From positions 30,643 to 94,642 of the forward strand of contig CAZGKW010000012.1 of NCBI GenBank assembly GCA_964526295.1: a stretch of DNA of 64,000 bases, given 5' to 3'. The notes beneath the pieces are model-generated. The model searched no databases and was not told where the DNA came from. It saw only the letters and a list, made by a program, of their open reading frames with translations. Positions 2,776 to 62,946 of this stretch are shown in pieces. The stretch is from an uncultured Anaerolineales bacterium. GTDB taxonomy: Bacteria; Planctomycetota; Phycisphaerae; FEN-1346. A program made the translations under genes and the position numbers. The stretch's first letter is position 1. Every line of letters begins with the position of its first letter.

Positions 2776-4401
2776 GTGCATTATAATACATCCCTACTCT
2801 CTTTCGCCCTGGCCGCCTGCCTCCTGGCAACGGTCGCATCGCAGGCCCAAGCCGAGGCCACCCCTGGACCTCAGCTCAAGCCCTGCACCCTCGAGCTGGT
2901 CGACGGACGCAAGGTCGAGGGGCACCTTGCGGTGCAGTTCAAGATGGACGATCACCTCGTCGTCTACTCGCCGCGCCTGGCGACGGTGCGGTCGTTACTG
3001 AAGGAGCACGTGCATGCGCTGACCGTGAACGGTAAGCGCGAGGAGCTGAACCCGAAGCGCGAGTTGACGGAGGAGGACAAGAAGCTTCTGGGGCAGATCG
3101 AATGGCCGGACGAACCGCCGGCCGAGGGTCGCAAGCCCGCCTACACCAGCCAAAAGTGGGAAGCCCCGAGGCGGCTGCTGGTCTGGGCGGGGCCCGGCAC
3201 GAGCGGCCTTCTGCACCACTCGGCGAACTGGCTCGACAGCGGGCGCCCCGCCGAGGGGCTTTGGCCCGAAAAGGGCATCAATCCGCGGGACCTCAAGGTC
3301 GCTTGGCTGGACAGCGAGACGGACGTCCTCCTCCCCGCCGCCGGGAAGGGCTACGCGGTGGCCTACAGCGTCCGGCCGGCGGGCAACCTGGAGCTGCGGC
3401 ACCTGACCGTCGAGCCCGGCGCGACCTTCAAGGTCGCTGCCTGCCGCGCCCTGACCGGCAACGTCTGGGCGATGCGGGGGGCCGTCTTCCGCACCCGCTA
3501 CACGGCGACCCTGAGCGGCCCCCGGCACACGCTGTTCTTCAACGACCTGCCGTGGGTGGGCCCCGAGACGGAAAGGGCCCGGCCCGTACGGCGGGGGTTC
3601 GTCGTCCCCTCGCCGGAGGGGTTGAAGGTCGCCCAGTACCTCGACGTCCGAAAGGCCGACGAGGCATCCGTCACGTTCTGCGGGAGCGTCGCGACGAGCG
3701 ACGACTTCCAGATCGCGTCGGGCACGGCGATCGTCGCCCCTCACAGCCAGCTCTGGCCGGGGACCCGCTCGTCGCAGCGGCTGCCAAGCGGGGCCGTTCT
3801 GCGGCTCCACTCCGGGTCTGAGTTCGGCAAGGCCCACAACGCCACCTCGACGGGCTACGGACTGGGCGAGTTCGCCGACGGCGGGTCCGTCGATCTGGTC
3901 GTCGCCGGGCGGATCGAGGCCGGCACGCCCGACCAGCCCATCACCGAGGACGTCGGCCTGGGGGTCAGCTTCAAGAACCCCGTCGGCTGGTCCAACGGCA
4001 AGGGAACGGTGAAGAAGCGGCCGATGAGCCTTATCGTCGCCGAGGGCGCCGAGATCGTCGTCCACACCGCCGACCCCAAGAAGGCCCGACTGGTCATCGG
4101 CTGGCACCGGCGGCACAACGATTGGTTCGAGACCCGCCTTGAAGGCTACAAGCAGATGCCGGAGGAGATCGAGATCGCCTTCCTCGGCAAGCCGGCTCTG
4201 GAGCACGTGGGTTTCGAGGACGTCGCCCGCGGCGGCATCCACGTGGCGGACCCGGCTTCGGTGAAGTGGTGGCAAAACGTGTCCTTCGGCGCCCGCAACC
4301 GAGGCCGGCCCGAGGAGCTGATCGCCCCGCTCTCCGACGCCGAACGGGAGGCCATCAATTCGACGCGGTGGTACCGGCGGCTTGTTCAGCCCCCGAGGTA
4401 G
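2776..4401 (+). CDS. Secreted paralog of the same family, lacking the PA14 tail.
   Basis: GTG start followed by a signal peptide (HYNTSLLSFALAACLLATVASQAQA). It shares the N-terminal block LKPCTLELVDG.K..G.LAVQF.M..HLVVYSPRLATVRS..HVHALT..ELNPKR.LTEEDKKLLG..WPDEPPAEGR..LLVWA.PG.SG with 390..2744. Confidence 0.65.
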   Translation: MHYNTSLLSFALAACLLATVASQAQAEATPGPQLKPCTLELVDGRKVEGHLAVQFKMDDHLVVYSPRLATVRSLLKEHVHALTVNGKREELNPKRELTEEDKKLLGQIEWPDEPPAEGRKPAYTSQKWEAPRRLLVWAGPGTSGLLHHSANWLDSGRPAEGLWPEKGINPRDLKVAWLDSETDVLLPAAGKGYAVAYSVRPAGNLELRHLTVEPGATFKVAACRALTGNVWAMRGAVFRTRYTATLSGPRHTLFFNDLPWVGPETERARPVRRGFVVPSPEGLKVAQYLDVRKADEASVTFCGSVATSDDFQIASGTAIVAPHSQLWPGTRSSQRLPSGAVLRLHSGSEFGKAHNATSTGYGLGEFADGGSVDLVVAGRIEAGTPDQPITEDVGLGVSFKNPVGWSNGKGTVKKRPMSLIVAEGAEIVVHTADPKKARLVIGWHRRHNDWFETRLEGYKQMPEEIEIAFLGKPALEHVGFEDVARGGIHVADPASVKWWQNVSFGARNRGRPEELIAPLSDAEREAINSTRWYRRLVQPPR

Positions 4402-15246: not shown

Positions 15247-16094
15247 GCCGTGCCCGCGTCCTCACCGTGCTTCGTCTGCTGGCCCTGGCGGCCATCGGCT
15301 TCGCCATCGCCATCCCGTTCGTCTGGATGGTCTCGACCTCGCTGAAGCCGCGGGCAGAGGCCGACAGCCTGAACCTGGTGCCCGCAGAGCCCACCCTCCG
15401 CAACTACCCCATCGTCCTGGACATCGTCCCCGACCCGGTGACGAAGCGCTACTTCGGGATGCACTACGCCCGGTGGTACCTGAACTCGATCCTGGTGGCG
15501 TCGGCGGTGACGCTGCTCCAGGTGCTGACGAGCGCGATGGCCGCCTACGCGTTCTCGCGGATCCAATGGCGGGGGCGGGACACCGTGTTCCTGCTGTACC
15601 TGGCAACGATGATGGTCCCGTGGATCCTGACGGTGATCCCGAACTTCCAGATCATGGTGTGGCTGGGGTTCGTCGATTCGTACCGGGGGCTGGTCCTGCC
15701 GCTGGCGTTCAGCGCGTTCGGGACGTTCCTCCTGAGGCAGTTCATGCTGTCGATCCCGCCGTCGCTGGACGAGGCGGCCCGGATCGACGGGGCCGGCCAC
15801 TGGCAGATCTTCTGGGAGGTGATCATGCCGCTGGCCAGGCCGGGCCTGATTGCCCTGGCGATCATCACGTTCCTGGGGGTCTACCGGACGCTGTTCTGGC
15901 CGCTCATCATGCTCGACACGGAAGAACTGTACACGCTGTCGGTGGGGATGCTGGCGCTGGACTCGAGCCAGGGCCGCCAGACCGAGCTGATCATGGCTGC
16001 CACCGTGATGAACGTCGTGCCGCTGATCATCGTTTTCATCGTGTTCCAGCGGTTCCTCGTCAAAGGCATCCAGCTCGGCGCCGTGAAGGGCTAG
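15243..16094 (+). CDS. Sugar ABC transporter permease (MalG/UgpE-like).
   Basis: The GTG start overlaps the upstream stop codon (GTGA). Carries the permease loop LDEAARIDGAGHWQIFWEVIMPLARPG. Confidence 0.85.
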   Translation: MSRARVLTVLRLLALAAIGFAIAIPFVWMVSTSLKPRAEADSLNLVPAEPTLRNYPIVLDIVPDPVTKRYFGMHYARWYLNSILVASAVTLLQVLTSAMAAYAFSRIQWRGRDTVFLLYLATMMVPWILTVIPNFQIMVWLGFVDSYRGLVLPLAFSAFGTFLLRQFMLSIPPSLDEAARIDGAGHWQIFWEVIMPLARPGLIALAIITFLGVYRTLFWPLIMLDTEELYTLSVGMLALDSSQGRQTELIMAATVMNVVPLIIVFIVFQRFLVKGIQLGAVKG

Positions 16095-16095
16095 G

Positions 16096-16184
16096 AAAAA
16101 GACACTAAGTGTCTTTTTCGGGCACGTAAGTCGTTGCGAAGAAGGGGTTTACCCACACAAAAAAGACACTAAGTGTCTTTTTTT
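16096..16184. repeat. Composite AT-rich double-hairpin element (copy D). Two AAAAAGACAC-TAA-GTGTCTTTTT hairpins flank a 40-bp core.
   Basis: Hairpins at 16096..16118 and 16159..16184. The same hairpin recurs six more times at 49.7–51.9 kb. The core ends TTTACCCACAC, against TTTATCCACACC in copies A–C. Confidence 0.85.
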
Positions 16185-16201: not shown

Positions 16202-17965
16202 GTGAAGAAGGTCTTCCTGGTGCTGACGGCGGTGGTGGCGGCGCTCTATGCGGTGGCGCTCGTGACGGTGCCGGAGGTCCCGCCGGGGCGGCTGCTGTGG
16301 GCCACCGACAAGAACCCGGCCCGGACGGTCCAGACGGGCCTCTTTCGCATGCTGCGTCGGCCGCTCGCGTTGTCGGAGGCGAACGTTGCCGACTGGGACC
16401 GCCTGGCGACGGCGCTCGCCGGATCGGAGGTGTCGCCGGCAGCCGAGGCGATCCGCGAGCGCCTGCCCGAGAACGCCCTCGCCGCCCTCAAGCGCGCCGC
16501 GGCCGGGGCCGAGCTGGACGACGCCGCGAAGGCGACCGTCCTGGCCGCCCTCAACGCCTTGCTCGACCGGCCGGACCTCCACCCGGACGAGGCGTTCGGC
16601 GGCGTGGCCCCCCCTGCCGAGGTCGTGCCGCTCCTCGGGCGCGACCCCGGGTCGCTCATGCCCCTGGAGGTGCGGCACCTCAACCGGGTGCTCATCGAGG
16701 CGGCCTTGCCCGGGGCCTTCCAGCCCGCCGAGCCGCTCTACCCCGGCCTCCAGGTCCAGGTCGACCCCGGGGACCGGGCCAAACTGATCGTTCGCTGCGC
16801 CACGGGCACCGGACCCGACATCATCGACCTCTACACCCTCCAGGAGATGCACTCGTTCGTCGAGGCGGGCATCCTGATGGACCTGACGCCCTACGCCGAC
16901 GAGATGGGTTTCGGCCTCGGCGACACCTATCCCGCCCTGGCGACAGCCCTGACGGTTGCCGGCCGGCAGTACCGCTTCCCCTGCAACGTCTGGGCCAACT
17001 GCGTGGTGTACAACCGGGCCCTGTTCGAGCGGCTGGGCGTCCCCGAGCCGCAGCCGGGATGGACGTGGGACGATTTCATCCGGGCCGGCACGGCCATCCG
17101 CGACGCGGCAGGGCGGCGAGGCGAGCGGATCATGCCCGTCGCGAACTGGAACAACGTCTGGATCTTCCAGGACGCCCTCGTTGGCCGTGGCGGCCGGTAC
17201 TTCACGGAGGACGGCCTGGCGTCGCGGCTGGCCGAGCCCGAGGCGGTCGAGGCGATGCAGCTCTACCACGACCTGATGCACGTCCACGAGGTCCTCCCCA
17301 CCCCCGCCGAGACCGCCGCCATGAGCAGCCAGGGCGGATGGGGCCAGAGCGGCCTGAACTGGTTCTTCGAGGAGCGGGCCGCCATGATCTTCATCGGCCG
17401 GTGGATCCTCGTCCAGGTCCGATCCTGGCCCGGGATCTCCGACCACCTGGGCGCCGCCCGCCTGCCGCGCTTTCCCGGCCGGCCCAGCCAAGGCATGGCC
17501 GACTGCCGCGGGGCCGGCATCAACGACGCCAGTCCCCGCAAGATGGAGGCCCTGAAGTTCCTCCAGTACCTGGCGAGCCCGGAGTACGGCGAGGTCATCG
17601 TCTTCGACGGCGACGCCCTGCCGCCCAACCCGGACCTCGCCCGCACGGGGAGGGACCTGGTGAATCCGGCGGTGACCGACCCGGCGTTCCACCAACCGTT
17701 CGTCGATGCCATCGAGGCGGCCCGGCCGCTGGACACCAGCCCCTTCATCGACGCCGGCCAGGTCAAACGCTGGACCAAGGAGCGGGTCGAGCGGGTGGAG
17801 AACCGGCTGGAGACGCCCGAGGAGGCGATGCGAGGCTTCGCCGACGAGATCGACCGACAGATCCGGACGAACCTCCAGCGGCGGCCCGATCTTCGGCAGC
17901 GGTACCGCGAGGTCACCGGCCGCGAATGGACCCCCGACTGGTGGAAACCGCCCCCGCCGCGCTGA
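16202..17965 (+). CDS. ABC transporter extracellular solute-binding protein (family 1, sugar) with a ~200 aa N-terminal extension.
   Basis: GTG start and signal peptide MKKVFLVLTAVVAALYAVALV. SBP_bac_1-like core (..RCATGTGPDIIDLYTLQEMHSFVEAGILMDLTPY..). Confidence 0.7.
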   Translation: MKKVFLVLTAVVAALYAVALVTVPEVPPGRLLWATDKNPARTVQTGLFRMLRRPLALSEANVADWDRLATALAGSEVSPAAEAIRERLPENALAALKRAAAGAELDDAAKATVLAALNALLDRPDLHPDEAFGGVAPPAEVVPLLGRDPGSLMPLEVRHLNRVLIEAALPGAFQPAEPLYPGLQVQVDPGDRAKLIVRCATGTGPDIIDLYTLQEMHSFVEAGILMDLTPYADEMGFGLGDTYPALATALTVAGRQYRFPCNVWANCVVYNRALFERLGVPEPQPGWTWDDFIRAGTAIRDAAGRRGERIMPVANWNNVWIFQDALVGRGGRYFTEDGLASRLAEPEAVEAMQLYHDLMHVHEVLPTPAETAAMSSQGGWGQSGLNWFFEERAAMIFIGRWILVQVRSWPGISDHLGAARLPRFPGRPSQGMADCRGAGINDASPRKMEALKFLQYLASPEYGEVIVFDGDALPPNPDLARTGRDLVNPAVTDPAFHQPFVDAIEAARPLDTSPFIDAGQVKRWTKERVERVENRLETPEEAMRGFADEIDRQIRTNLQRRPDLRQRYREVTGREWTPDWWKPPPPR

Positions 17966-34778: not shown

Positions 34779-35195
34779 TCAACTTTCCGTTCGCCGCGTG
34801 GCGACGCTGACCTTCGTCGCCCCGCCCAGCTTGGCCTGGTCGATGACGCGGACCAGGAGGCCGGACTGGACGGCCGGATCGGCCTGTACGATGACCGGCA
34901 TGTCGCGGTTGGCGAGCGTGTTCTCGACGAGCAACCGGACGCCGCCGATGGGGACTCGTCTGCCCTCGCAAAGCACCTCGCCCTGCTGAGTCATTTCGAT
35001 CAGGATGCTGGTTTTCTCGTCGCTTCGGGACGCACCCCCGGGCTGCGGCTTGTCGACCTGCACGCCGGACTCGTCCACGAACGCCGTCGTCACGATGAAG
35101 AAGATCAGGAGGATGAAGACGCAGTCCATGAGGGGAGAGATATCGACCGCGCCCTCGGTGCCCTCTTCGTCGGCGGTTTCTCGAAAACGTCTCAC
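34779..35195 (-). CDS. exbD: ExbD/TolR biopolymer transport protein.
   Basis: AVDISPLMDCVFILLIFFIVTTAFV is the ExbD signature. Confidence 0.85.
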   Translation of the reverse strand: MRRFRETADEEGTEGAVDISPLMDCVFILLIFFIVTTAFVDESGVQVDKPQPGGASRSDEKTSILIEMTQQGEVLCEGRRVPIGGVRLLVENTLANRDMPVIVQADPAVQSGLLVRVIDQAKLGGATKVSVATRRTES

Positions 35196-35216: not shown

Positions 35217-35630
35217 TCAGCCCTGACCTGGCCGCGTCGCGATGCTGACTTTCGTGGCCTCGGCCAGCTTGGCCTCCTCGAGCACCCGGACCAGCACGCC
35301 GGAATGGGCGGCGGCGTCGGCCTGGATGATCACGGGGACCTGCTCCTTCCGGATGAGCCGCTTCACGAGCGGCTGGACCCCGCTGACGCCGATCTCGCGT
35401 CCCGCGTAGACCACCTCGCCCTTGGCGGTGACCGCGATGAGAATGCTGTTCTTCTCGAGGCGGACGCCGGACGCGGCCTGGGGCCGGTCGACCTCCACCC
35501 CGGTCTCCTCCACGAACGTCGTCGTCACGATGAAGAAGATCAGGAGGATGAAGACGCAGTCGAGCAAGGGAGAGATGTCGATCCCGCCCTCGCTGCTCTC
35601 ATCCATCGCCGCTTCGCGGAAGCGTCCCAT
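35217..35630 (-). CDS. exbD: ExbD/TolR paralog.
   Basis: GIDISPLLDCVFILLIFFIVTTTFV, a tandem duplicate of the downstream exbD. Confidence 0.85.
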   Translation of the reverse strand: MGRFREAAMDESSEGGIDISPLLDCVFILLIFFIVTTTFVEETGVEVDRPQAASGVRLEKNSILIAVTAKGEVVYAGREIGVSGVQPLVKRLIRKEQVPVIIQADAAAHSGVLVRVLEEAKLAEATKVSIATRPGQG

Positions 35631-42200: not shown

Positions 42201-42346
42201 ATGGCAACCCGGACCTCCCCCAGTGGCGTGTTAAACGCCTTGTCGTACACCACGCCGCGCAGGGAGCCCGCCTGCTGGGCCGAAGCGGTCGCCGCCAGAC
42301 AGAGCAACGCCCCCAGAGCAGCCCATCCCGCCGATAGCCGTGTCAC
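39242..42346 (-). CDS. TonB-dependent outer-membrane receptor with an N-terminal carboxypeptidase-regulatory-like domain.
   Basis: Signal peptide VTRLSAGWAALGALLCLAATASA and a CarbopepD_reg-like domain (GSLRGVVYD..GNYVFPQVEPGTYTLIFSKPGF). Plug domain (..AVIRGLPDRYVNSQMNGCRLP..) and a ~800 aa barrel ending ..SAHFSW. The GTG start overlaps the upstream TGA. It is nested in a 1331-aa GC-artifact ORF. Confidence 0.8.
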   Translation of the reverse strand: MTRLSAGWAALGALLCLAATASAQQAGSLRGVVYDKAFNTPLGEVRVAIVETSQKATTAPEGNYVFPQVEPGTYTLIFSKPGFTRQVRGDVVVPPGQIVEANAWMGGDFTEMDEFVVQDISFEAGTELQVLELRRGEAAFVTGISSELMKDAGASDAADAVQLVAGASVQEGKFAVIRGLPDRYVNSQMNGCRLPTADAEKRAVQLDQFPAAVIEALLVSKTFTPDQQGDASGGAVNIVLKGIPDETILKFGGGYSFNTQVRDAGDEFLTYRGGGVPTWARQDVPIPAPGEFGGALGTSLDEAPREYDWSFAAGGRRAFKTGLTVGGYTSLFYKRDASYYEDGIDDRYQLQEQAGEQRLMPQTTQGTVQGDWDPDDPYNPPARGDLFTKLYDVTQAKEEVQWGALGAVGVETENHSLNLVYLYTRIAEDVATLAEDTRGKEFFFPAFGDVPVYDPDDPSHPGNSTQSKALAAYRRNETLAYTERTTETLQLHGHHRLPVPEVGKVDVFRALSPEVDWFVARSTADMFQPDKRQFGGGWVAPSFNPGFPPFVPPFVTRSEHFPVKPGANFRLGNIQRIWKEIEEESEQHAINVKFPFRQWTGDEGYVRFGVFEDEVARTFDQNSFSNLRDTGDPQAPRLRDAPFEASYSAAYPDLLEEQGGVPTIKDGPPFVDVDYRGDQHISAWYWMVDFPLFSMLKVIGGARYEETELTIVNTAEEDATWFPPGASVGIKLTPGLFPDGPDVAFQQGDVLPAIGFVFAPLKEITLRGSYTETVARQTFRELSPILQQEFLGGDIFIGFPGLRMSALENYDLRFDYEPYAGGLFSVSYFDKRVVDPIENVQRVASLFTYTTPRNFTRGRLRGVEVEARQHLGHFVRELNGLTVGANATFIDSEVILPPDEAAELEELLGVPVLTRDMTNAPEYIYNLFMTYDLGPTGTRFAVFYTVRGDTLVAGAGQASGRFVPSVYATEFGTLNVSVSQKLGDYLTLSFKAKNLTDPEIETVYRSDFIGEDVTKTSFHKGIDYSVGLSAHFSW

Positions 42347-43596
42347 CACGGTGGCCCCAATCCCTCGAGAATCTCGCGCAAACGGGTCTCGAACTCGGCG
42401 TCCGGCTCCACGCCGTCCAGCGCCATCGAACGGCAGGCGGCGGAGAGGTCCTCGGCCCGAGGCCGGGCATTGGGGTTCTCGGCCCCGACTTCCACGGCCT
42501 TCCGGTAGACCTCCAGCGCCCGTTCCGTGGCCCCCATCGCCCGGTACGCCTCCGCCACCGACAGGAGCACGCTTGCCCGGTCGGTCGTCAGGACCTTCTT
42601 CCGCTCCGGCTCGAACCTCGCGAGCGCGGCCCCCACGTCGGCGCGGGCCCGGTCTTCGTCGCCGGCCCGGAACCGAAGCCCCGCCACGCGGGCACGCACC
42701 GGGATGCCGTACTGAGGCGGCCAGGAGACGCTTTCCACCCGCTCCTCGGTCTCCTCCACCAGCGCCAGGGCATGGGGCCGGTCCTCGTGTGCCAGGGCCG
42801 CGCCCACCAACGCCTCGAAGACGTCCACCTGGACCTGGCCCGGCATGCGGACGAGGCCGGCCCGGACCTTCTCCTCCACCAGCGATCGGCGCTGCGGGTC
42901 GTCGTAGAAGCGGTCGTAGAGCTCGACGTATGCCGCCAGCGCATTCCGGATGACATCGAAGTGGCCGGATGCGATGGCCGCGTCCAGCCGTTCCACCTGC
43001 TGCTGGAAGGCCTCGTCGTCGGCCAGCATCGCCCGGATGCGATCGACCTTGCCCTGTTCGGCCGGGGGCGCGCCGGCCTCGAGCCGCCGGGCCTCCTCGT
43101 CCCGGCCGAGCCAGGCCTGCGTCTGGGCCATCTTGACCCGTATGCGGCCCTGGCGCCAGTCCTGCTCGTCCTCGGCGAGCTTGGCGGCCACCTCCAGGAA
43201 ACGGCCCGCCTCGTCGGTGTGCCCGTTGCGAGCGCAATAGAGCGCGAGGTCGGCATAGGCCAAGCCCCGGCGCCAGTTGACGATCTGCTTCGTGTAGTCG
43301 AGGGCCCGCTCGGGCTGCCCGAGTTCCAGACAGGCCCTCACGACCTCCTCCTGCTGCCGGGAACGGTCCTTGACGTGCGGCTGGACCGGGAGCGCCGTCG
43401 CCGCCTCAAACGCCAGGTCGAGCAGTTCCGTGCGGTACGGCTCGACCGGCTTGTCGGCCATCGGCTCGGAGGCCGGGGCGGTCTCGGACGGCACCGGCCC
43501 TTCCTGGCCGGGCCCGTCGGCGGACTGAGGGGCGCAGCCGCCCACCCAGAGCACACCGCCCACCAGCAGGAGAAACGTTCGCAGCGCAGTCTGCAT
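42343..43596 (-). CDS. Helical-repeat (TPR-like) lipoprotein.
   Basis: Lipobox LLLVGGVLWVGGC. Alpha-helical repeats. The stop overlaps the TBDR start. Confidence 0.5.
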   Translation of the reverse strand: MQTALRTFLLLVGGVLWVGGCAPQSADGPGQEGPVPSETAPASEPMADKPVEPYRTELLDLAFEAATALPVQPHVKDRSRQQEEVVRACLELGQPERALDYTKQIVNWRRGLAYADLALYCARNGHTDEAGRFLEVAAKLAEDEQDWRQGRIRVKMAQTQAWLGRDEEARRLEAGAPPAEQGKVDRIRAMLADDEAFQQQVERLDAAIASGHFDVIRNALAAYVELYDRFYDDPQRRSLVEEKVRAGLVRMPGQVQVDVFEALVGAALAHEDRPHALALVEETEERVESVSWPPQYGIPVRARVAGLRFRAGDEDRARADVGAALARFEPERKKVLTTDRASVLLSVAEAYRAMGATERALEVYRKAVEVGAENPNARPRAEDLSAACRSMALDGVEPDAEFETRLREILEGLGPPW

Positions 43597-43618: not shown

Positions 43619-43661
43619 GAAAGTCTGATGGCAGGACGACACGTCCTGCCATCAGACTTTC
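43619..43661 (-). promoter_or_regulatory. Perfect 20-bp stem / 3-nt loop hairpin in the leader of the lipoprotein–TBDR unit. Candidate terminator or attenuator, or an RNA stability element.
   Basis: GAAAGTCTGATGGCAGGACG-ACA-CGTCCTGCCATCAGACTTTC. No U-tract on either strand. Confidence 0.5.
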
Positions 43662-43685: not shown

Positions 43686-45614
43686 CTACAGAGGAAGGAC
43701 CCGGTAGAGCTTCGTCCCGTCGAAGCCCGCGAGGTCCTGGATGCAGATCTCGCCGCCGGTGCCCTCGACCACCTTGAAGGGGGCCCAGTCCGTGCCGTCG
43801 TCCGAGACCTCAATCTGGTACCACGTGCCGTCCTCGGTGTCGAAGCAGACCACGGTGAACTTCAGCTCCAGCTCCTGGGGCGGGGCGGCCACAACGTCGC
43901 CGTCCGGAGCGCCGAAGAACCCGAAGGCGTCGGCCGCCGTCCAACCCCGGGCCCAGTTGTGGTCCGGGCTGAACGCCCCGCGGAAAGGCGTGTTCGTGAA
44001 GAACCCGCAGACCGGCTCGTCGTCGATGTTGAACGTTGCCGCGCTGACGGCGTCGTTGGCGGCCCGCGGGTCGATGGTGACGACCGGGAACATGATTTTC
44101 CCGCCGCGGGTCACGCCGGGGTCCCCGTCGCCGTCGGCGTCGCTGAAGTCGCGGGTCAGGGCCGCGATGGGCATGTTGTCGTCCGGGCTGCCCACGTTGA
44201 ACGAGGCGACCACGTTGTTCTTGGCCGGGTTGCTGCCGCCGCCCACCGTCACGCCGCGGGCGTCCGACTCGGTGTAGGCCCCGGCGGCCAGGTTGCGGAA
44301 GAACACGCTGTCGACGATCTCGGCGAGCTTGCCGGAGGTCTGGGCCGCGTAGATCGCCATCAGTTCGGGCTGGGTGAAGCCGGGACCGATGGGGGGGACC
44401 ATGTTCGCGTGACCGCCCGTCAGGACGTTGGCCGGGTTGTAGACCTCGCTCCAGTCGGTCGTCCAGGTGGCGGCCCACGACAGGGTGCCGTTATGGCCGT
44501 ACCCGTTGGCCCCGTCGCCGTCGATGTTGTCGAACTGGACCAGCCCGGCGCCCAGGTCCATCCAGATACACTTACGGTACTGGATGCGGCAGTTGTCGCG
44601 CCAAGCGGTCCCGCCGTCGCCGTCGCCGGGCTGGCCGACGACGGTGGCGTTATAGATGACGGCGGTCGTGCACGGCTGGAAATCGGAGTCCTCGGCCCCG
44701 TCATGCTCGAAGCAGTTGTCGCCGACACCGGAGCCCTGGCTGTCGTCGACGCTGTAGCCCTGGACGATGAAGATGAACTGGGCCTTGCCTCGCCAGCCCT
44801 GGTCCAGGTCGAAGGTGTCGTCGCCGATGTTCCAGATGGTGCAGTACTTCAGCTCGACCGTGCCGCCCCAGATCTCGATGCCGTCGTCGACGTTGTTCAT
44901 GACGTCGACGTGGTTGATCTCGGTCTCGCGGCCGACGCCGCCGAGCGAGAAGCCGTTCAGCTCGTCGTTGAGGCCGATGACCCGTCCGCCGTAGCGGAGC
45001 GACAGATACTGGATGGTGCCGCTGTTGTCATCGTCCATGTTACCGCCGTACCGCGTGTCGGGGTCGCCGACGAACCCGGGGACCAGGCCTTCCATGTCGG
45101 CCTCGTTGCCGGCGGCGGGATAGGGCACGTTGCCGGGGACGGCGTCCTCGGCGATGTAGCCCTTGCCCATGATGGCGATGCTGCCCCACTCGTTGGCGGC
45201 CTCACGCCAGGTGCCGGTCTTGGGGTCGCCGACGGTGTCGATGACGCCGGCGTTGACGACGCTGCCGGTCCACGTCGCGACGTCCTGGTTGGTGGTGAAG
45301 ATGACCGGCTCCTGGGCGGTGCCGAGGACGTAAAGGCGGCTGCCGCGGGTGATGGCGAGGCTGCCCGCCCCGCCGCCCGTCGCCGTGCTGGCCACGAGCG
45401 TGCCGGCCTCGATGGTCAGCGTGGCCCCGTTCTTCACGACGGTCGAGGCGGTCAGGTCGTAGACGTTGCGGACGCCTGCGGTCTCCTTGGTCCAGACCTC
45501 GGAGACGGTGATGTCACCCGACTTCGGGATGATGTTGACGGCCGCGCCGGCCGTCCCGGCCATGGCGAAACCGATCGCCAGAACCAGCAGAGCTGCTTTT
45601 CTGAAGGCTTTCAT
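43686..45614 (-). CDS. Large secreted protein of unknown function (beta-rich, Asp/Gly-rich; possible beta-helix).
   Basis: Signal peptide MKAFRKAALLVLAIGFAMAGTAGAA. No recognisable catalytic motif. It is the first gene upstream of the lipoprotein/TBDR/TonB block. Confidence 0.4.
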   Translation of the reverse strand: MKAFRKAALLVLAIGFAMAGTAGAAVNIIPKSGDITVSEVWTKETAGVRNVYDLTASTVVKNGATLTIEAGTLVASTATGGGAGSLAITRGSRLYVLGTAQEPVIFTTNQDVATWTGSVVNAGVIDTVGDPKTGTWREAANEWGSIAIMGKGYIAEDAVPGNVPYPAAGNEADMEGLVPGFVGDPDTRYGGNMDDDNSGTIQYLSLRYGGRVIGLNDELNGFSLGGVGRETEINHVDVMNNVDDGIEIWGGTVELKYCTIWNIGDDTFDLDQGWRGKAQFIFIVQGYSVDDSQGSGVGDNCFEHDGAEDSDFQPCTTAVIYNATVVGQPGDGDGGTAWRDNCRIQYRKCIWMDLGAGLVQFDNIDGDGANGYGHNGTLSWAATWTTDWSEVYNPANVLTGGHANMVPPIGPGFTQPELMAIYAAQTSGKLAEIVDSVFFRNLAAGAYTESDARGVTVGGGSNPAKNNVVASFNVGSPDDNMPIAALTRDFSDADGDGDPGVTRGGKIMFPVVTIDPRAANDAVSAATFNIDDEPVCGFFTNTPFRGAFSPDHNWARGWTAADAFGFFGAPDGDVVAAPPQELELKFTVVCFDTEDGTWYQIEVSDDGTDWAPFKVVEGTGGEICIQDLAGFDGTKLYRVLPL

Positions 45615-48005: not shown

Positions 48006-49475
48006 ATGAACCCCGTCAAACTCGTGCGAAAGCTCCTCAAGGCCCTCCGCGGCGGCGCCAAGGCCCCCCAGATCGTCCTGGCCGTCCTCCTCGGCTTCGC
48101 CGTCGGCATGGTCCCCGGCGTCAACCTGACGCTCCTGGGGTGCCTCGTCCTGCTGCTCATCCTCAACACCAACGGCGGCCTGGCGGGCCTCTCGGCCATG
48201 CTCGGCAAGGGCCTGTGCCTCGTGCTCGCCCCCGTGACGTTCCGAATCGGCTACTTCCTGATGCACACGGCGGGCCTGGTGGGCATCGTCCGGAAGCTGG
48301 CCGACACGCCCGTCCTCGCCCTGCTGGACCTCCACGTCTACTGCGTCCTGGGGGCGGTCCCGATCATCCTGGTGGTCGGCGGAGGCCTGGGCATCGCCGT
48401 CGCCGCCGCCATCCGGCAGGCCCAGACCCGCATGAGGGCCTCCCACGGAAAAAGCGAGAGGGTCCGGAAGGTCGCAGCCAATCCCGTGGTCAAGTTCCTC
48501 GTCCGCGTCGCCGTCGGCAAACGCAAGCCCGGCCAGACCGACGAGCCCCAGCCGCTCTTCAAGACCAGCCGCCTCATCGCCGGCGGCATCGTCCTGATGC
48601 TGATCGTCATCCTCCAGCTCGTGTTCCTCGATCACCTGGCCCGCCGGGGCCTCGAGGCGGGCCTGGCCCAGGCCGCCGGGGCCGAGGTCAACGTCGAGAA
48701 GGCCCACCTCTCCCTGGCCCAAGGGCGGCTCGTCGTCGAGGGACTCCAGGTCACCGACCCGGCCCGCCCGACGCACAACCAGGTCCGGTCGGACCGCATC
48801 GTCGCGGACTTCAGCATCGCCGACCTGCTGGCCAAGCGGTTCGTCTTCGACTCGGTCCGGAGCGCGAGCACCCGCCTCGACGTGCCGCGGGAGGGGCCCG
48901 GCGAGGTCTATCGCCCGCCGGAAGACGACGAGCCGCTCCTGCCGCCGCTGCCGGAAGGCGGCCTCGGGTCGGTCCGCGAATACCTGGAACGTATCAAGCG
49001 GCTGAAGGAGAAGATCGACAAGGTCCGGGACTTTCTCCGGAAGGTCGACCCGGCCAAGGACGAGCCCTCGCCGGAGGAACTGGCCGAGGCGGCACGCCTG
49101 AAGGGCTACCTCCGTCTCTCGGCCAAGGACTACCTGGCCAGGCACCCCACCTGGGTCATCCGCGACCTCGAAGCCTCCGGCGTCGTCCTCTACGAGGACC
49201 TCCCGACCGTGACCATCCGCGGCAAGGACCTCGCCAGCCACCCCTCGCTCTATGAGAAGGAGGCGTCGATCGACGTGCGGCCCGAGGGCGACGTCGCCGA
49301 ACAGCTCAAGAAAGGCGTCTGGGACAAGGTCCGAGAGGGGGCCGGCAAGCTCCTCGGCGGCGGGGCCGACGAGGAAGACCCCACGAAGGACGCTCAGCCG
49401 GAAGAGAAGGACGGAGAGAAATCCGACCTGGAGAAGGTCGGCGAAGGGTTCAGGAAGCTCCTCGGCGGCGACTGA
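48006..49475 (+). CDS. Membrane protein with an N-terminal DUF2062/TIGR03546-like domain fused to a long charged C-terminal region (TIGR03545-like).
   Basis: MNPVKLVRKLLKALRGGAKAPQIVLAVLLGFAVGMVPGVNLTLLGCLVLLLILNTNGGLAGL, then further TM helices and an acidic, coiled-coil tail. Confidence 0.4.
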   Translation: MNPVKLVRKLLKALRGGAKAPQIVLAVLLGFAVGMVPGVNLTLLGCLVLLLILNTNGGLAGLSAMLGKGLCLVLAPVTFRIGYFLMHTAGLVGIVRKLADTPVLALLDLHVYCVLGAVPIILVVGGGLGIAVAAAIRQAQTRMRASHGKSERVRKVAANPVVKFLVRVAVGKRKPGQTDEPQPLFKTSRLIAGGIVLMLIVILQLVFLDHLARRGLEAGLAQAAGAEVNVEKAHLSLAQGRLVVEGLQVTDPARPTHNQVRSDRIVADFSIADLLAKRFVFDSVRSASTRLDVPREGPGEVYRPPEDDEPLLPPLPEGGLGSVREYLERIKRLKEKIDKVRDFLRKVDPAKDEPSPEELAEAARLKGYLRLSAKDYLARHPTWVIRDLEASGVVLYEDLPTVTIRGKDLASHPSLYEKEASIDVRPEGDVAEQLKKGVWDKVREGAGKLLGGGADEEDPTKDAQPEEKDGEKSDLEKVGEGFRKLLGGD

Positions 49476-49705
49476 GCGGGCGTCCCGACGTGCTCCTTAT
49501 GTCCCCTCTCCCTCGACGGGCTCGCACGGCATAGCCTTGGCGACGCTGGGAGAGGGAAAGCATGCGTGTGTCGGGCGAGGGCGAGCCGGGCCGCCGATGT
49601 AAGTCGGCGGGGACGCGCGGCCGGGCTCCCCGCGGAGCGGCCCCAGGCCCGAGACGCGCCGGTGGTCCGTCAGGCATCGGCATCGAGCACCGTGCCTGGA
49701 GTCGG

Positions 49706-49754
49706 CGGCGTTGGACGTTGAGCGCTCGGCGTTGGACGTTCGGCGTTGGACGTT
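49706..49754. repeat. Iteron-like direct repeats: three copies of CGGCGTTGGACGTT (the last two exactly tandem).
   Basis: Copies at 49706..49719, 49727..49740 and 49741..49754, immediately upstream of repeat copy A. Confidence 0.7.
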
Positions 49755-49774
49755 CTGTCTCTGAGTCGAACGAG

Positions 49775-49865
49775 AAAAAGACACTAAGTGTCTTTTTGGT
49801 AGAAGCTAAGCCCTTTATCCACACCGGGTTAGGCGCAGAAAAAAGACACTAAGTGTCTTTTTTTT
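49775..49865. repeat. Composite double-hairpin element, copy A (hairpin / 41-bp core / hairpin).
   Basis: AAAAAGACACTAAGTGTCTTTTT + GGTAGAAGCTAAGCCCTTTATCCACACCGGGTTAGGCGCAG + AAAAAAGACACTAAGTGTCTTTTTTTT. Confidence 0.9.
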
Positions 49866-50219
49866 CCGTGGTCGCCGCTCCCGCCGGGCGCGGCACTCCT
49901 TACATACCCTCTCCCTTGACGGGAGAGGGAACGGGTGAGGGTGTCGGCGGCCTTCGGCCGCCGCCTGCCGTCACCCCGAGCGGAGCGAAGCGCACTCAAG
50001 GGGTCTCGCCGTGCGTTGCCGTTCCAGGGAGTGCGGTGGCAGGGCCCGCGCCAGCCGGCGTCGACACCGCTTTCGTTTCGCGCACGACAGGGAAAGCGGC
50101 CCCTCCGGTCTCCGGTCCTGCGCCTCGTGCCCGCAGCATTGCCCCGGAACATCGTCCTGACAGGACGTTCCGGATGCCGCCGCCCCCGAGCCGCCAGGAC
50201 GTCTCGCGAAACCGTCAAG

Positions 50220-50310
50220 AAAAAGACACTAAGTGTCTTTTTGGTAGAAGCTAAGCCCTTTATCCACACCTGGTTAGGCGCAGAAAAAAGACACTAAGTG
50301 TCTTTTTTTT
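50220..50310. repeat. Composite double-hairpin element, copy B.
   Basis: Identical to copy A except for one core substitution (CACCTGG against CACCGGG). Confidence 0.9.
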
Positions 50311-50445
50311 CCCGCGGAAGTAGACGTGCATGGCGTTGGGTTCTTCCACGGGGAGCCCCAGGTCGGCGACGCATTTCACCTTGCGGTGCTGCGGGCCGTC
50401 CGGATCATTCTTGCCCGGGAACAGGCGAAACCCGCCGCCGGCGGG

Positions 50446-51561
50446 TCAATCGCCCTTCTCCGGCGAATCCTTCTTCGCAGGTGCATCCCCTTCCTCACTC
50501 TTGTCCTCGGTCCGCGGCTTGACGACCGTGACGCCCTTGCCGCGGGAAGGGGGCGCCTCGGCGCCTTGCTGTGGCTGGCGAATCTTGTCGAGGTCGAACT
50601 CGCGGACGGTCCGAAGGACCGTCGCGTTCGGGAACTTCGGCAAGGCCTCGGCCCGGACCGCCGCCGCCTTCTCGGGCTCTTTCTGCTGCACGTGACACCG
50701 GAACAGCGTGTAATAGACGTCCGGGAGCAACAGCGACTGGGGATACTCCCTGATGAACTGCCGGCCCAAGGCCTTGCTGCGCTCGAGCGCCGCCTCGCGC
50801 TCAAGATGGTCCGCGCCGAGCCCGTCGATGATGTCGGCGTACATGACGGTCTCTCGGAAGGCGCTCCCGCGGTGCTGTTCGATGATGGTCGCCGCAACGT
50901 CATCAAAGGCCTTTCGGCCGAGGCTGCCGTCTGGCCCCGTACTTCCCATGATCCGCTGTGCGTAGTGGGCTTCCACAAGAGCTCGCCCGAGACGGAGAGC
51001 GAACACTCTGTCACCCAGCTTTGCGATGCTGTCGGGCACCTCGGCCAGAGGCAAGACCTCGACCGAGACCGGCGAGGAGACGAACCGGAACTCCTTTTCC
51101 TCGACGATGCTGGCCCGAACCCGGTAGCGACCCGGTTTCGGCAGGACCAGCAGGTCGGTGCGTTCATACCGCTGGCCCGCTTCAATCGTCCCGGGGACCC
51201 AGTGGCGCTCGGTGTAAAAGTCGTATTCGATGGGCCGAGGCGAAGGCTTGATGTTCCGGACCACCTCGAGGTCCCAGAGCCGCCTGAACTCACTTTCCTC
51301 GCCCAGCGCGATATCGAGACTGTATCCGTCCCGGGAGTCCCACCGAATCGTGGGCCGCCGAGATGTGAAATGCGCTTGCGACGGGTTGGCCATCGTTGTT
51401 CGCAGCACAATTGGCTCGCCGCAGATGTAGCGCGCCTTATTGGCTCTCAGGTGGAGCTCAAGCCGCCCGGATGGCTCTTGGCTTAAGGCACTCATCGCGA
51501 GTAGAATAACCGTGCAGAGCACAACAGGTAGCACACGCCCAACGACCAGATGCGGTGCCAT
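50446..51561 (-). CDS. Hypothetical secreted protein encoded in a lower-GC (~60%) insert bracketed by repeat copies B and C.
   Basis: Signal peptide MAPHLVVGRVLPVVLCTVILLAMSALS. Codon usage and GC content differ from the flanking genes. No recognisable family. Confidence 0.5.
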   Translation of the reverse strand: MAPHLVVGRVLPVVLCTVILLAMSALSQEPSGRLELHLRANKARYICGEPIVLRTTMANPSQAHFTSRRPTIRWDSRDGYSLDIALGEESEFRRLWDLEVVRNIKPSPRPIEYDFYTERHWVPGTIEAGQRYERTDLLVLPKPGRYRVRASIVEEKEFRFVSSPVSVEVLPLAEVPDSIAKLGDRVFALRLGRALVEAHYAQRIMGSTGPDGSLGRKAFDDVAATIIEQHRGSAFRETVMYADIIDGLGADHLEREAALERSKALGRQFIREYPQSLLLPDVYYTLFRCHVQQKEPEKAAAVRAEALPKFPNATVLRTVREFDLDKIRQPQQGAEAPPSRGKGVTVVKPRTEDKSEEGDAPAKKDSPEKGD

Positions 51562-51582
51562 AACAGAGCCCCTTCCGTAAGG

Positions 51583-51832
51583 TTAGTCGCCCGCCGATTC
51601 CCTGAGGTCTCTAATGTGCTCATGCGAGAACCGGTCCGGAGGGCCTTGCTTCAGGTCAAACCACTGTTTCCAGCAGGGGATCGTGTCGGGTCTTTCCCAT
51701 CCAATGATCCCGTCCTTGTTCGGATCCGGTTGCCAGACGGTGAGGCTCCCGGTGTATACCGGCGTCTCGAGTCCGAGCACATGCCCCACCTCGTGCGCCA
51801 CGACCACAGGAAGCGATTTCCCCTTGGTCAAG
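51583..51832 (-). pseudogene. 3' fragment of a snapalysin/metzincin-like zinc metalloprotease gene, 5'-truncated by repeat copy C.
   Basis: ..VVAHEVGHVLGLETPVYTGS.. contains the HExxHxxGL zinc-binding motif. The reading frame runs straight into the repeat (MWIKGLASTKKTLSVFFL is the repeat translated). Confidence 0.6.
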
Positions 51833-51923
51833 AAAAAGACACTAAGTGTCTTTTTGGTAGAAGCTAAGCCCTTTATCCACACCTGGTTAGGCGCAGAAAA
51901 AAGACACTAAGTGTCTTTTTTTT
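51833..51923. repeat. Composite double-hairpin element, copy C.
   Basis: Identical in sequence to copy B. Confidence 0.9.
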
Positions 51924-52450
51924 CTGCGGGCCGTCCGGATCATTCTTGTCGGGGAACAGGGGAAATCCGGGGACACAATACGGTTTTTCCCGGCCGCGTC
52001 CGGCGTCGGCCCCGGACGGCCAACGGCGCAAAGCGCAGCCTCAACCGGGGGCTCACGGTGGCGTTCCGGGGCGGGGCAAGGGGCAGGCGGCCGTGGCCCC
52101 GCCCCAAGTGAGCAGCGATGCAGCGGCTGTTGCTATGCCGCCGGAAGCCCCGGCGCGTGGCCACAACAGCTAGTCCGGATTAGCGCGTCTTGCGGGCAAC
52201 CTGCTGCCAAGCCGCCCTAGCCTCCGGCGAGGCCATGTCGAAGGCCTCGGTCTGCTCCCACACCTCGTGCAGCACAGTACGGCCCAGGTCGGTAAACTCG
52301 AAGCACACGTCCTCGCCGAGAGGGCCAACTAGGCCCAAAACAAGCGTATTGCCTGGGGCGTAATGCCCGCAGGATCGCGAAATATGGCGGCGCGGCAAGG
52401 CTCCGTTGGGCCGGGCGGGCCCGCCGCCGCGTCGTAGCGTTGTATTTCAA

Positions 52451-60691: not shown

Positions 60692-61579
60692 TCAGCTTGG
60701 ACGGCCGCGAAGCACCCGCAGGATGCGGTCCAGATCATCCGCGGAGTAGAATTCGATCGTGATCCGGCCCGAACCCGGCTTCCTCCCTTCCTTCACGTCC
60801 ACCTTGGTCCCCAGCACCTCCCGCAGACGCGTCTCGACGGCCCGCACGTGGGGAGACTTCGGAGGCCGGGCGCGGGCCTGGATCCGCCGCTTTCCAGCGA
60901 ACCCCGCCGCCACGAGCTGCTCGATCTGCCGCACGCTCAGGCCCTCCCGGGCGGCCCGCTGGGCCAGCGATACCTGACGCGCGGGGTCCCGGAGGGTCAG
61001 CAGGGCCCGGGCATGGCCCATCGCCACACGCCCGCTCCGAATGAGCGACCGAACGTCCTCGGGCAACTCCAGCAGCCGAACGAAGTTCGAGATGCTCGCG
61101 CGGTCGATGCCCAGCCGCTTCGACGCCTGGTCCTGGGTCTGCGACGTCGTGTCCAGATACGCCTGGAAACTCTCGGCCTTCTCGATGGGGTCGAGGTCCT
61201 CTCGCTGGAGGTTCTCGATGAGGGCGATCTCGAGCATCTCCTGGTCGCGGACGTCGCGGACGACGACGGGCACCTCGGCCAGGCCGGCTGCCTGGGCCGC
61301 CCGCAGCCGCCGCTCGCCGGCCACCACCTGATATCGCTCGCCGTGGGGCCGTACGACGAGGGGCTGAAGGACCCCGTGCTGGCGGATCGAGTCGGCCAGA
61401 CGGCCCAGCTCCTCGGCGTCGAAGCCCCGCCGCGGCTGGTGCGGGTTCGGGTCGATCAGCTCAACCGGCAGGGCCGTCGAGGGGAGGGGCCGCTCGGGGG
61501 CCTCGCCGGGCGACGCCTCGGCGGCGCCGATCGATTCCATCAGGCCGTCCAGGCCGCGTCCGAGCTTGCGTTCAGCCAT
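60692..61579 (-). CDS. parB: Chromosome partitioning protein ParB/Spo0J.
   Basis: LIDPNPHQPRRGFD..GERRLRAAQAAGL..VVVRD (ParB box) and an HTH. The start overlaps the parA stop. Confidence 0.9.
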   Translation of the reverse strand: MAERKLGRGLDGLMESIGAAEASPGEAPERPLPSTALPVELIDPNPHQPRRGFDAEELGRLADSIRQHGVLQPLVVRPHGERYQVVAGERRLRAAQAAGLAEVPVVVRDVRDQEMLEIALIENLQREDLDPIEKAESFQAYLDTTSQTQDQASKRLGIDRASISNFVRLLELPEDVRSLIRSGRVAMGHARALLTLRDPARQVSLAQRAAREGLSVRQIEQLVAAGFAGKRRIQARARPPKSPHVRAVETRLREVLGTKVDVKEGRKPGSGRITIEFYSADDLDRILRVLRGRPS

Positions 61580-62336
61580 CGTCGGGACTCCTTGGTGCGA
61601 GCGGGCCGCCGGCACAGGCCAGCTCCAGACCCAGTTCGGCATAGGCCCGGGCCCCGGGCGAGCGCGGGGCGTAGTCGATGACCGACAGGCAGTGGCTCGG
61701 CGCCTCGGCCACCGCCGGGTCGCGGGGGATGACGGTGCGAAGGACCGGCTCGTCGAGCTTTCCCCGGACCTCGGTCTCGACCTCGCGGGTCAGCTCGGCT
61801 GCCGGGTCGTACATCGTGAACAAGACGCCCGCGACGGCGGGGCGGTGCGTCCGGGCCCGGGCCCGGCGGACGGCCCCCAGGAGCTGGACGAGCCCCTCGA
61901 GCGGATAGTACTCGCACTGGATGGGGATGAGGACGAAGTCGCCGGCGGCCAGGGCGCTTCGCGTCAGCGGCCCCAGGGAAGGGGGGCAGTCGACGAGGAC
62001 GACGTCGAAGCGGGCCGAGGCGGTGCGGGCCAGGTTCTCGCGGAACGTCGCCGGCGTGGCCCGGTCTGCTAGGCCCTCAAGGTCGCGCCCGGCCGGCAGA
62101 CAGTGGACCCCGTGCCACTCGGTTTCGACCGGGGCGGCGGCCTCGCTCGGCGGGGCGAAGGCCGGGCTCCGACCGGCGACGCTCGCACCCACGCCGCTGG
62201 TGGCGTTGCCTTGGGGGTCGACGTCGACCAGGAGGACGCGGCGGCCCATCAGGCCCAGGACGTGGGCCAGGGTGGTGGCGGTGGTGGTCTTCCCGACGCC
62301 GCCCTTCTGGTTGGCTACCGCGACGGTGATCGGCAC
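61572..62336 (-). CDS. parA: Chromosome partitioning ATPase ParA/Soj.
   Basis: VPITVAVANQKGGVGKTTTATTLA is the deviant Walker A. The start is probably the GTG near 62336. The ORF is open to a TTG at 62447, through a C10 tract. Confidence 0.85.
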   Translation of the reverse strand: MPITVAVANQKGGVGKTTTATTLAHVLGLMGRRVLLVDVDPQGNATSGVGASVAGRSPAFAPPSEAAAPVETEWHGVHCLPAGRDLEGLADRATPATFRENLARTASARFDVVLVDCPPSLGPLTRSALAAGDFVLIPIQCEYYPLEGLVQLLGAVRRARARTHRPAVAGVLFTMYDPAAELTREVETEVRGKLDEPVLRTVIPRDPAVAEAPSHCLSVIDYAPRSPGARAYAELGLELACAGGPLAPRSPDDG

Positions 62337-62946
62337 GTGGCCCTCCGACGGGGGATTGTATCGCGCGGGGCAGGGGACGCAACGGCAAATCGGGTCGGCC
62401 CCCCCCCCGCGGACGGGGCCGAGCGGAAGCGCACACCCCCGGCTCAAGGTTATGGGACGTTGCGAAGCCGAGCGCGCGGGGACACGCCCGGCGAAGGACC
62501 GAAGGGCCCGAAAGCTATTGAGGACGGTAGAGGTAAGGTCACAAGTGCGGTGGGAGCCCGACTTGCTAAAGTGGCAGTTTCGGACCCAATTTGGGCACTT
62601 TTTCGGCCCCGCAGTGTCTCGCCATGTGCGACATTGGCAACACCGTCCTTAATAAGAGCGCCTGTCGGAATGAAACCGGGGGGCGCCGCCGGTTGCGACG
62701 TACGCCGGGACCCGCCACTGGACGGGCAGGCAAGCTGCCCGTGGGGCTCGTGCCGCGAGTTCTAAGGAGGTGGGCTGCCGGGCCGTCAGGGGAGCGACGC
62801 GCAGTTGGAGGCCAGGAGAGGTGGCCGGGCCTGTGCGGGGAGGAAACGGGTCTTCGTTGCCCCTTGCGGCTGGGGCCGGCGTGGGGTAACCTTGGCTTGC
62901 GAAAGAAGGCCGGCCGTACGGGCCGACACGGAATGAAGGGCGCAGC

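Follow-up and report, generated by a model that had tools for sequence, protein, structure and literature searches.

A 64-kb stretch of contig CAZGKW010000012.1 (assembly GCA_964526295.1; "the window" below means this whole stretch) carries four copies, A to D, of a short composite repeat in which a hairpin, AAAAAGACAC-TAA-GTGTCTTTTT, is followed by a core of 40-41 nt and then by the identical hairpin. The sequence family that this 91-bp unit represents is new, though its general kind is known; it is unusual in its invariant head-to-tail twin hairpins and in a consensus DnaA box that is the sole conserved motif of its core. On balance, and with modest confidence, we favour the reading that it is a small non-autonomous dispersed repeat whose spread as single-stranded DNA depends on a hairpin-recognising HUH enzyme that is encoded elsewhere. 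The involvement of an HUH enzyme, taken by itself, we propose only tentatively.

Four units with identical ends

All eight hairpins are identical across the four copies (Table 1). The 23-mer AAAAAGACACTAAGTGTCTTTTT has 8 exact matches in the window, all on the + strand and arranged as 4 pairs, compared with no matches in 100 dinucleotide-preserving shuffles (0 expected by chance), and a 28-nt core probe has 3 matches versus 0 expected. Copies B and C are the same across 98 nt, including the left flank GTCAAG (50214-50311 and 51827-51924), and copy A differs from both solely at base 49826, which is G in A and T in B and C. Copy D combines hairpins that are invariant, with 0 of the 49 compared hairpin positions differing from B, with a core of which about half is different. 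An earlier reading of this DNA made from the letters (the sequence-only reading) had placed four composite units in the window and had seen a single difference among A-C, and we find all four units and the one variant position where it had put them. It had also described D as having the same hairpins and a related core ending; the hairpins are indeed unchanged, and the relationship between the cores is confined to one shared block. The repeat itself was thus recognised correctly, but the DnaA box within its core and a larger repeat of ~340 bp around B had gone unnoticed.

The elements are ~70% AT in a window of ~70% GC, a sharp difference that had also been remarked upon, and 16 of the window's 27 runs of at least five A or T bases sit inside them. 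A scan of the window for AT-rich islands and perfect hairpins returned no further relatives. All four units have the same orientation and both loops read TAA on the + strand, so the hairpins of a unit are arranged head-to-tail. No target-site duplication is seen, in that no direct repeat of at least 3 nt flanks any of the four copies.

Copy D is base-for-base identical in two independent Logan assemblies, SRR7048218 and SRR7048227 (both 100% identical to the window). Since D is reproduced in two read-based assemblies, the element belongs to the organism and is no artefact of this window. The read-based contigs end at 49533 and 52529, on either side of A-C, and these three copies are known from one NCBI contig.

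Hairpin structure and terminator form

Each hairpin is a perfect stem of 10-11 bp closed by a 3-nt loop, reading A run, GACAC, loop TAA, GTGTC and T run, with A5/T5 in the first hairpin of the unit and A6/T7-8 in the second. Folded as RNA, the local hairpins of both strands have energies of -9.3 to -12.1 kcal/mol, clearly lower than those of shuffled controls, and the core shows no structure beyond chance. An A run precedes the stem and a U/T run follows it (T5-T8 on the + strand, T5-T6 on the - strand). In structure, each hairpin has the form of a bidirectional intrinsic (Rho-independent) terminator, in accordance with what the sequence-only reading had suggested, and the predicted activity would be termination in both directions.

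Because each end is itself a palindrome, the two ends of a unit can also pair with each other, forming one long stem of -35.2 kcal/mol versus -20.2 kcal/mol for two local hairpins. With DNA folding parameters, B favours the long stem and D favours the two local hairpins.

A DnaA box in the conserved part of the core

The sole block common to the cores of D and A-C reads (A/C)GAAG..AAG...TTTAYCCACAC, and the semi-global alignment of the two core types is equalled or bettered by 17-39 of 2000 shuffles. Relative to the hairpins, this block is displaced by ~14 nt in D as compared with A-C, and yet the total core length is kept (40 versus 41 nt), with the hairpins starting 65 nt apart in A-C and 64 nt apart in D. 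Invariant hairpins beside half-different cores rule out neutral divergence. Either the hairpins are strongly constrained or homogenised, or ends and cores are modular, as in the dimers of repetitive extragenic palindromic (REP) sequences found in E. coli bacterial interspersed mosaic elements (BIMEs).

Within the shared block lies the consensus DnaA-box 9-mer, which is exact in A-C (TTATCCACA) and has one mismatch, at a consensus T, in D (TTACCCACA). The 64 kb contain no match to the relaxed DnaA box TTWTNCACA other than the element boxes, which all point the same way, and 59 kb of relatives contain 0 matches. An exact box arises in 1.8e-4 of composition-matched core shuffles. The distances from the box to the two hairpin centres are 33 and 32 nt in A-C versus 46 and 18 nt in D, i.e. 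its phasing is not conserved. The box is a real feature of the core and, judged from its letters, a predicted binding site for DnaA. Neither a dnaA gene nor a cluster of DnaA boxes is present in the window.

The genes parB (60692-61579) and parA (the pair spanning 60692-62447, or 60.7-62.4 kb) lie at the window's right end, at a distance of 9-10 kb from A-C. Cumulative GC skew has its minimum near 59.8 kb, which suggests that a replication origin may be close, skew over 64 kb being weak evidence.

Copy D within a sugar ABC operon

In a sugar ABC operon, D separates the second permease gene (stop codon TAG, 16092-16094) from the gene for the substrate-binding protein (GTG at 16202), at coordinates that agree with its earlier placement. 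It fits exactly into the space that runs from the permease stop codon to the ribosome-binding site of the next gene, and the gap without D would be 18 bp. In three orthologous operons with conserved synteny, the corresponding gaps measure 5, 41 and 94 bp and contain no AT-rich hairpin element. Judged by sequence comparison, these empty junctions are supportive rather than decisive evidence that D was inserted. The nearest binding-protein orthologues are 50-55% identical, and the few named ones come from several phyla, among them Planctomycetota (Phycisphaerae, Tepidisphaeraceae), Lentisphaerae and Armatimonadota orders; the host may be a Planctomycetota-like organism. No sigma-70 promoter facing the binding-protein gene was found within the element.

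In malEFG, a REP sequence lies 3' of the binding-protein gene and shields that mRNA, and the sequence-only reading had likened D to this REP between malE and malF. The analogy holds for the intergenic position but not for the mechanism, as the gene order is reversed. Since D lies 3' of the permeases and 5' of the binding protein, the same mechanism would favour the permeases and lower the binding protein, which by analogy would be the opposite of the usual stoichiometry and the reverse of malEFG.

The operon of one relative (L039 and L040, 9907-10000) contains a tandem heptamer array, (GATTGCG)n, exactly at the junction of permease and binding-protein genes. This intergenic spot therefore seems to tolerate insertions.

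Flank motif and a larger repeat beside B

The tetranucleotides directly 5' of the units (Table 1) read CTTG in B, CTTG in C, CTCG in A and C+CTAG in D on the minus strand. On the other side of the module, the DNA to the right of B is itself repeated. Its 111 nt at 50446-50556 encode the last 36 residues and the stop of a 371-aa open reading frame (ORF), and this tail recurs, with 35 of 36 residues identical, at the end of an unrelated 347-aa protein (P0157) on a different NCBI contig of 58,610 bp, which most likely comes from the same assembly as the window. No homologue of the 371-aa family extends into the 36-residue tail; as the homologues stop short of it, two unrelated genes end in one and the same repeated sequence. 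The tail DNA, the 135 nt that separate the stop codon from B and the 91-bp module, which sits at one end, add up to a unit of ~340 bp.

The extra repeated DNA occurs solely on the side of the module opposite the CAAG/CGAG flank, and the flanks of A are unrelated to those of B and C. A one-sided extra repeat is the expected product of one-ended or imprecisely terminated HUH transposition (PMC13181058).

At the end of the larger repeat, positions 50552-50568 hold a palindrome, GGCGCC-TC-GGCGCC, with CTCG and CTTG; such sequences are common at 70% GC.

Searches for the element elsewhere

We scanned 185,579 GTDB species-representative genomes, the JGI metagenomes and IMG/VR for exact matches to the 19-mer AAAGACACTAAGTGTCTTT; the source genome is apparently not among them. 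These scans returned only lone matches in low-GC organisms (24-48% GC), none of them paired or accompanied by the core, and many of the lone matches look like ordinary terminators. Rfam gave no credible match to the element at gathering or permissive thresholds, and in blastn, plasmids and phages yielded nothing but chance matches of ~25 nt, none covering more than 27% of the unit. A protein-database search with translations of the element's open frames found no match, and literature searches for the hairpin sequence and for DnaA boxes in miniature inverted-repeat transposable elements (MITEs) found nothing relevant. The earlier statement that the repeat matches no recognised family is thus borne out across Rfam, plasmids, phages, IMG/VR, JGI metagenomes, GTDB representatives and the literature.

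The lineage is itself thinly represented: no window protein that we tested shares its 90%-identity cluster with any other of 15 billion sequences, and the tested proteins are known solely from one 95,685-bp NCBI contig and two read sets. Two other candidate identities were rejected. For an integron attC site, the core has GTTAGGC but no RYYYAAC partner, and the window contains no integrase; a parS site was rejected on sequence grounds.

How the copies may have arisen

Under the reading that we favour, the 91-bp unit would be a lineage-restricted family with the same perfect hairpin at both ends of a 40-41 nt core. It would spread as single-stranded DNA, in the manner of the palindrome-associated transposable elements (PATEs) of IS200/IS605, of REPs moved by RAYT, or of the oriIS end of the IS91 family. 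The enzyme would bind the hairpins, cut beside C-N-A-G on the + strand and insert the unit without target duplication. After insertion downstream of genes, each hairpin with its T run may serve as a two-way transcription stop or as a protector of mRNA 3' ends. The DnaA box in the core may be a binding site for a host factor, as in the outside end of IS50/Tn5, and this would be the least secure step. In favour of this reading are the invariant ends beside variable cores, the AT-rich composition in a GC-rich genome, the lack of a target duplication, the single orientation, the exact fit of D and its absence from the orthologous junctions, the truncated gene beside C, the flanks, the one-sided extra repeat, the location downstream of genes and the hairpin energies. 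Recent copying fits the near-identity of three copies, though B and C may not be independent, and the four copies occupy three or four distinct sites.

Several observations weigh against this reading. Only four copies are known, spread over no more than 36 kb, with three crowded into 2.2 kb, and none of the ~45 window ORFs is a transposase, Y1 or Y2 gene. The sequence-only reading had proposed looking for a flanking transposase such as the TnpA of IS200/IS605, and none is encoded in the window. With six left-flank bases and related DNA on the right in common, B and C may represent one duplication rather than two insertions. The hairpins of known HUH elements are usually imperfect, whereas those of this element are perfect. 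The orthologues used as empty sites for D are distant, at 50-55% protein identity. A simple terminator scan of the window sequence did not call the hairpins, probably because little of the T run is left outside the stem. Finally, AG also precedes the inner hairpin (GCAG), so the flank motif may be part of the repeat unit; with only four copies, of which B and C may be non-independent, the motif is a lead and not a result.

The copies could also have multiplied without any mobility. Foreign low-GC DNA with ordinary terminators would have been acquired once and multiplied locally by segmental duplication and recombination in a decaying island, with D arising by one ectopic conversion. The crowding of three of the four copies into 2.2 kb with lower GC content at third codon positions (GC3) and broken genes is in accordance with such a history, as are the flanking bases and the 46-nt neighbour shared by B and C, and the exact hairpin occurs in many low-GC bacteria with the look of an ordinary terminator. 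However, D is 33.6 kb away, host sequence exactly bounds it on both sides, and it has no shared flank. It also has a different core and yet identical hairpins, unlike what simple duplication and drift would leave. The unrelated flanks of A and the second locus, on another contig, that shares the DNA next to B likewise argue against it, and we consider this history unlikely. In another alternative, the unit would be a regulatory module of the host, i.e. a DnaA box between two AT-rich palindromes with a hairpin spacing of 64-65 bp, acting in titration or reactivation in the manner of datA or DARS, or in DnaA-dependent transcription control near the origin, and copied by local duplication. It would account for the presence of the box in the only block conserved between the core types, at the low chance frequency given above, for the lack of other relaxed matches in the window and in the relatives, for the single orientation, for the proximity of parA/parB and the skew turn, and for a hairpin spacing that is kept despite the shifted core content. 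Yet the box of D is mismatched and its phasing is not conserved, the boxes of A-C are 445 and 1613 bp apart, far sparser than in datA, DARS or oriC, and A-C sit among gene fragments in a compositionally foreign interval. Near-identity of the three copies over 98 nt points to recent copying and not to an old regulatory site, the window has neither a dnaA gene nor a box cluster, and skew over 64 kb is weak evidence for an origin. On these grounds we regard a host module as improbable.

Two further alternatives can be set aside with more assurance. An assembly or library artefact, for example an adapter or a chimeric join, could be suspected of A-C, which occur in only one NCBI contig at a place where the read-based contigs break off. 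But two independent assemblies, each of a separate run, give the same sequence for D, a one-base difference sets A apart from B and C, and the junctions are clean. The sequence was also in no paper that we found and, to our knowledge, matches no adapter. We therefore think an artefact very improbable. A solitary mini-CRISPR array would have the same layout, with a repeat of 23-27 nt, a spacer of 40-41 nt and another repeat, all within CRISPR size ranges, and the would-be spacer does differ between D and A-C. Against this, the two "spacers" are related to each other and one is present three times, the window has no cas gene, each repeat is a perfect palindrome with homopolymer runs at its edges, and Rfam gives no match, so that we give this identity almost no credence. 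The remaining probability is assigned to some explanation outside those named here.

Table 1. Positions of the four element copies, their associated motifs and repeats, and neighbouring features in the window
Feature	Position	Strand	Remarks
Copy A, 91 bp	49775..49865	+	hairpin 1 49775-49797, core 49798-49838, hairpin 2 49839-49865
Copy B, 91 bp	50220..50310	+	GTCAAG left flank
Copy C, 91 bp	51833..51923	+	left edge adjoins truncated metzincin-like ORF
Copy D, 89 bp	16096..16184	+	hairpins 16096-16118 and 16159-16184, diverged 40-nt core
DnaA-box 9-mer, exact	49815..49823 (A), 50260-50268 (B), 51873-51881 (C)	+	in shared core block
DnaA box, one mismatch	16149-16157 (D)	+	in shared core block
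Tetranucleotide directly 5' of unit	CAAG 50216-50219 (B), CAAG 51829-51832 (C), CGAG 49771-49774 (A), CTAG 16091-16094 then one G (D)	+	
Repeated DNA right of B	50311..50556	-	pieces recur at C and on another contig
46-nt segment directly right of C	51924..51969	+	91% identical to 50389-50434, 78 nt right of B
Atypical-composition, repeat-rich interval with A, B and C	49476..52450		between two convergent host genes; read-based contigs break either side
Metzincin-type protease, C-terminal fragment	51583..51831	-	cut at left edge of C
371-aa secreted protein, uncharacterised family	50446..51561	-	between B and C; GC3 0.78

The A-C interval and neighbouring genes

The ORFs of the interval that holds A-C have a GC3 of 0.76-0.78, compared with 0.86-0.93 in neighbouring genes. 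A is 299 nt downstream of the stop of a DUF748 gene (49473-49475); on the minus strand, B is 135 nt downstream of the stop of the 371-aa ORF and C is 527 nt downstream of that of a DUF6288 gene. Each of the four copies thus follows the 3' end of a gene, D being downstream of the permease.

C directly abuts the truncated metzincin gene. The fragment, which includes VVAHEVGHVLGLE, is without roughly the first 100 residues of the catalytic domain, and no homologues are detectable beyond its own annotation. When the B flank and the C flank were joined as one metzincin gene, a homologue search across the junction matched only the fragment's own annotation. For the 371-aa gene, the public annotation (P0125, 315 aa) starts at Met57 and thereby drops a plausible signal peptide; the longer reading has a ribosome-binding site, GGAAGGGG, 8 nt upstream, and homologues align from about residue 6-18.

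Further repeats surround A. Just to its left (49707-49754), the 13-mer GGCGTTGGACGTT occurs three times, at 49707, 49728 and 49742, in an array that resembles plasmid iterons, with a DnaA box and AT-rich hairpins within 110 bp. A second, GC-rich repeat, CCTTAYRT.CCCTCTCCCTYGACGGG...GGGAGAGGG, is found on both sides of A (49495-49560 and 49897-49931) and forms a hairpin that is tight at 49907-49929 and has a wide loop at 49504-49556. Inside the left copy of this repeat, at 49533, the read-based contig L036 stops.

Elsewhere in the window, the longest perfect hairpin has a 20-bp stem and a 3-nt loop, GAAAGTCTGATGGCAGGACG-ACA-CGTCCTGCCATCAGACTTTC, at 43619-43661, between the minus-strand ORFs 42343-43596 (a TPR protein) and 43686-45614. 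Two adjacent paralogues encoding large secreted proteins share 300 nt at 78% identity (465-764 versus 2851-3150), including a 32-nt exact match; the first has Chitobiase_C and PA14 domains and the second has no Pfam match. Tandem ExbD genes (34779-35195 and 35217-35630) are ~80% identical. The gene content of the window is that of an ordinary chromosome, with type II secretion, pseudopilins, TonB/ExbBD, a TonB-dependent receptor, PEP-CTERM, DUF1080, sugar ABC and ParAB genes.

Possible significance

Small palindromic repeats influence how operons are expressed, how stable mRNAs are and how genomes rearrange, yet hardly any work has been done on them beyond proteobacteria and a few other groups. 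The element described here comes from a very sparsely sampled high-GC lineage and has an unusually clean anatomy. If it is mobile, it would provide a simple substrate for finding its transposase and would test DnaA as a host factor for transposition beyond Tn5; if it is not, it would be a minor curiosity of one locus.

A bolder reading, which we hold to be rather unlikely, is that the 91-bp unit is a mobile DnaA-binding site, i.e. a hairpin-ended selfish element with a DnaA box as its conserved cargo. If this were true, the initiator could be recruited as a host factor and movement coupled to replication. Alternatively, strong DnaA boxes and twin terminators could be seeded near the origin and alter DnaA titration. 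Either possibility, if true, would be a kind of small bacterial repeat that has not been described before.

Comparison with known systems

The sequence-only reading had compared the unit with REP or MITE-like elements. The neighbourhood is right, but the element has neither the tag of the GTAG/CGTC REPs nor the target-site duplication of a classical MITE. REP superfamilies have an unpaired GTAG or CGTC at one end of a stem-loop with a stem of 5-13 bp and a loop of 2-20 nt; they occur in many copies per genome, are associated with a RAYT gene and lie mostly downstream of coding regions, and their dimers are often 20-100 bp apart and mostly head-head or tail-tail, head-tail being absent or rare (PMC3733652). 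The stem (10-11 bp), loop (3 nt) and dimer spacer (40-41 bp) of the element are all within these ranges. As with REPs, BIMEs and REPINs, the same ends occur with different spacers, the units can fold apart or as one long hairpin, and the copies lie downstream of ORFs, between co-directional or convergent genes. The linkers of E. coli BIMEs contain a site for a host factor, the integration host factor (IHF), much as the core contains a DnaA box. In contrast to these systems, the element is head-to-tail, tagless and AT-rich in a GC-rich host, with 8 hairpins known and no RAYT gene nearby. The GTAG/CGTC tag is absent within 6 nt 5' of the stem, on either strand, in 8 of 8 hairpins; a GTAG 1 nt 3' of hairpin 1 in A-C is on the wrong side and is absent from D. 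The lack of a tag and the head-to-tail dimer place the element outside the GTAG/CGTC REP superfamilies, and the lack of a target-site duplication means that it is not a classical MITE. Its 23-nt ends are inverted repeats only because each end is a palindrome, and the window contains no parent insertion sequence with such ends.

The Correia elements of Neisseria (NEMIS) and other MITEs resemble it in their ~100-bp unit, terminal inverted repeats of ~25 bp, host-factor site in the core, intergenic sites inside operons and transcripts that can form a long hairpin. Unlike Correia elements, which have an IHF site and generate a TA target duplication, our element carries a DnaA box and has no duplication, and its terminal repeats are themselves palindromes. 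A DnaA box also lies in the outside end of IS50/Tn5, where DnaA acts as a host factor. The two cases share a DnaA-box 9-mer inside a putative transposon end region; the Tn5 box sits in the 19-bp end of a DDE transposon, whereas the box of the element is central (off-centre in D) and is a predicted one.

Closer parallels are found among elements moved as single strands. IS200/IS605 PATEs are likewise small and non-coding. As in our unit, their two ends have similar hairpins that lie on one strand and point the same way, and there are neither classical terminal inverted repeats nor target duplications. PATEs also have a short conserved motif on the 5' side, the same tetra- or pentanucleotide directly next to the left end in every copy, and the copies in this stretch of chromosome have a single orientation. 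Unlike PATE hairpins, which are imperfect and subterminal, those of the element are perfect and terminal; its flank motif is loose (CAAG, CAAG, CGAG, CTAG+G), there is no TnpA gene in the window, and its sequence resembles that of no known element.

The oriIS end of IS91 measures ~82 bp and has two subterminal palindromes. The tetranucleotide after it, CTTG or GTTC, is essential, and CTCG is a minor form; the target always has T at position 2 and is not duplicated, and one-ended transposition carries body-side DNA along (PMC13181058). The palindromes of IS91 are imperfect and unrelated in sequence to ours, D is bodiless and one base off its tetranucleotide, the window has no Y2 transposase gene, and no terIS end has been identified for the element. 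The module is nevertheless similar in size (~82-91 bp) and in its two palindromes, and its minus-strand flanks CTTG, CTTG, CTCG and CTAG share T at position 2, an agreement that could be due to chance with four copies of which two are possibly not independent. As with oriIS, no target is duplicated, and variable extra DNA is found on the body side only.

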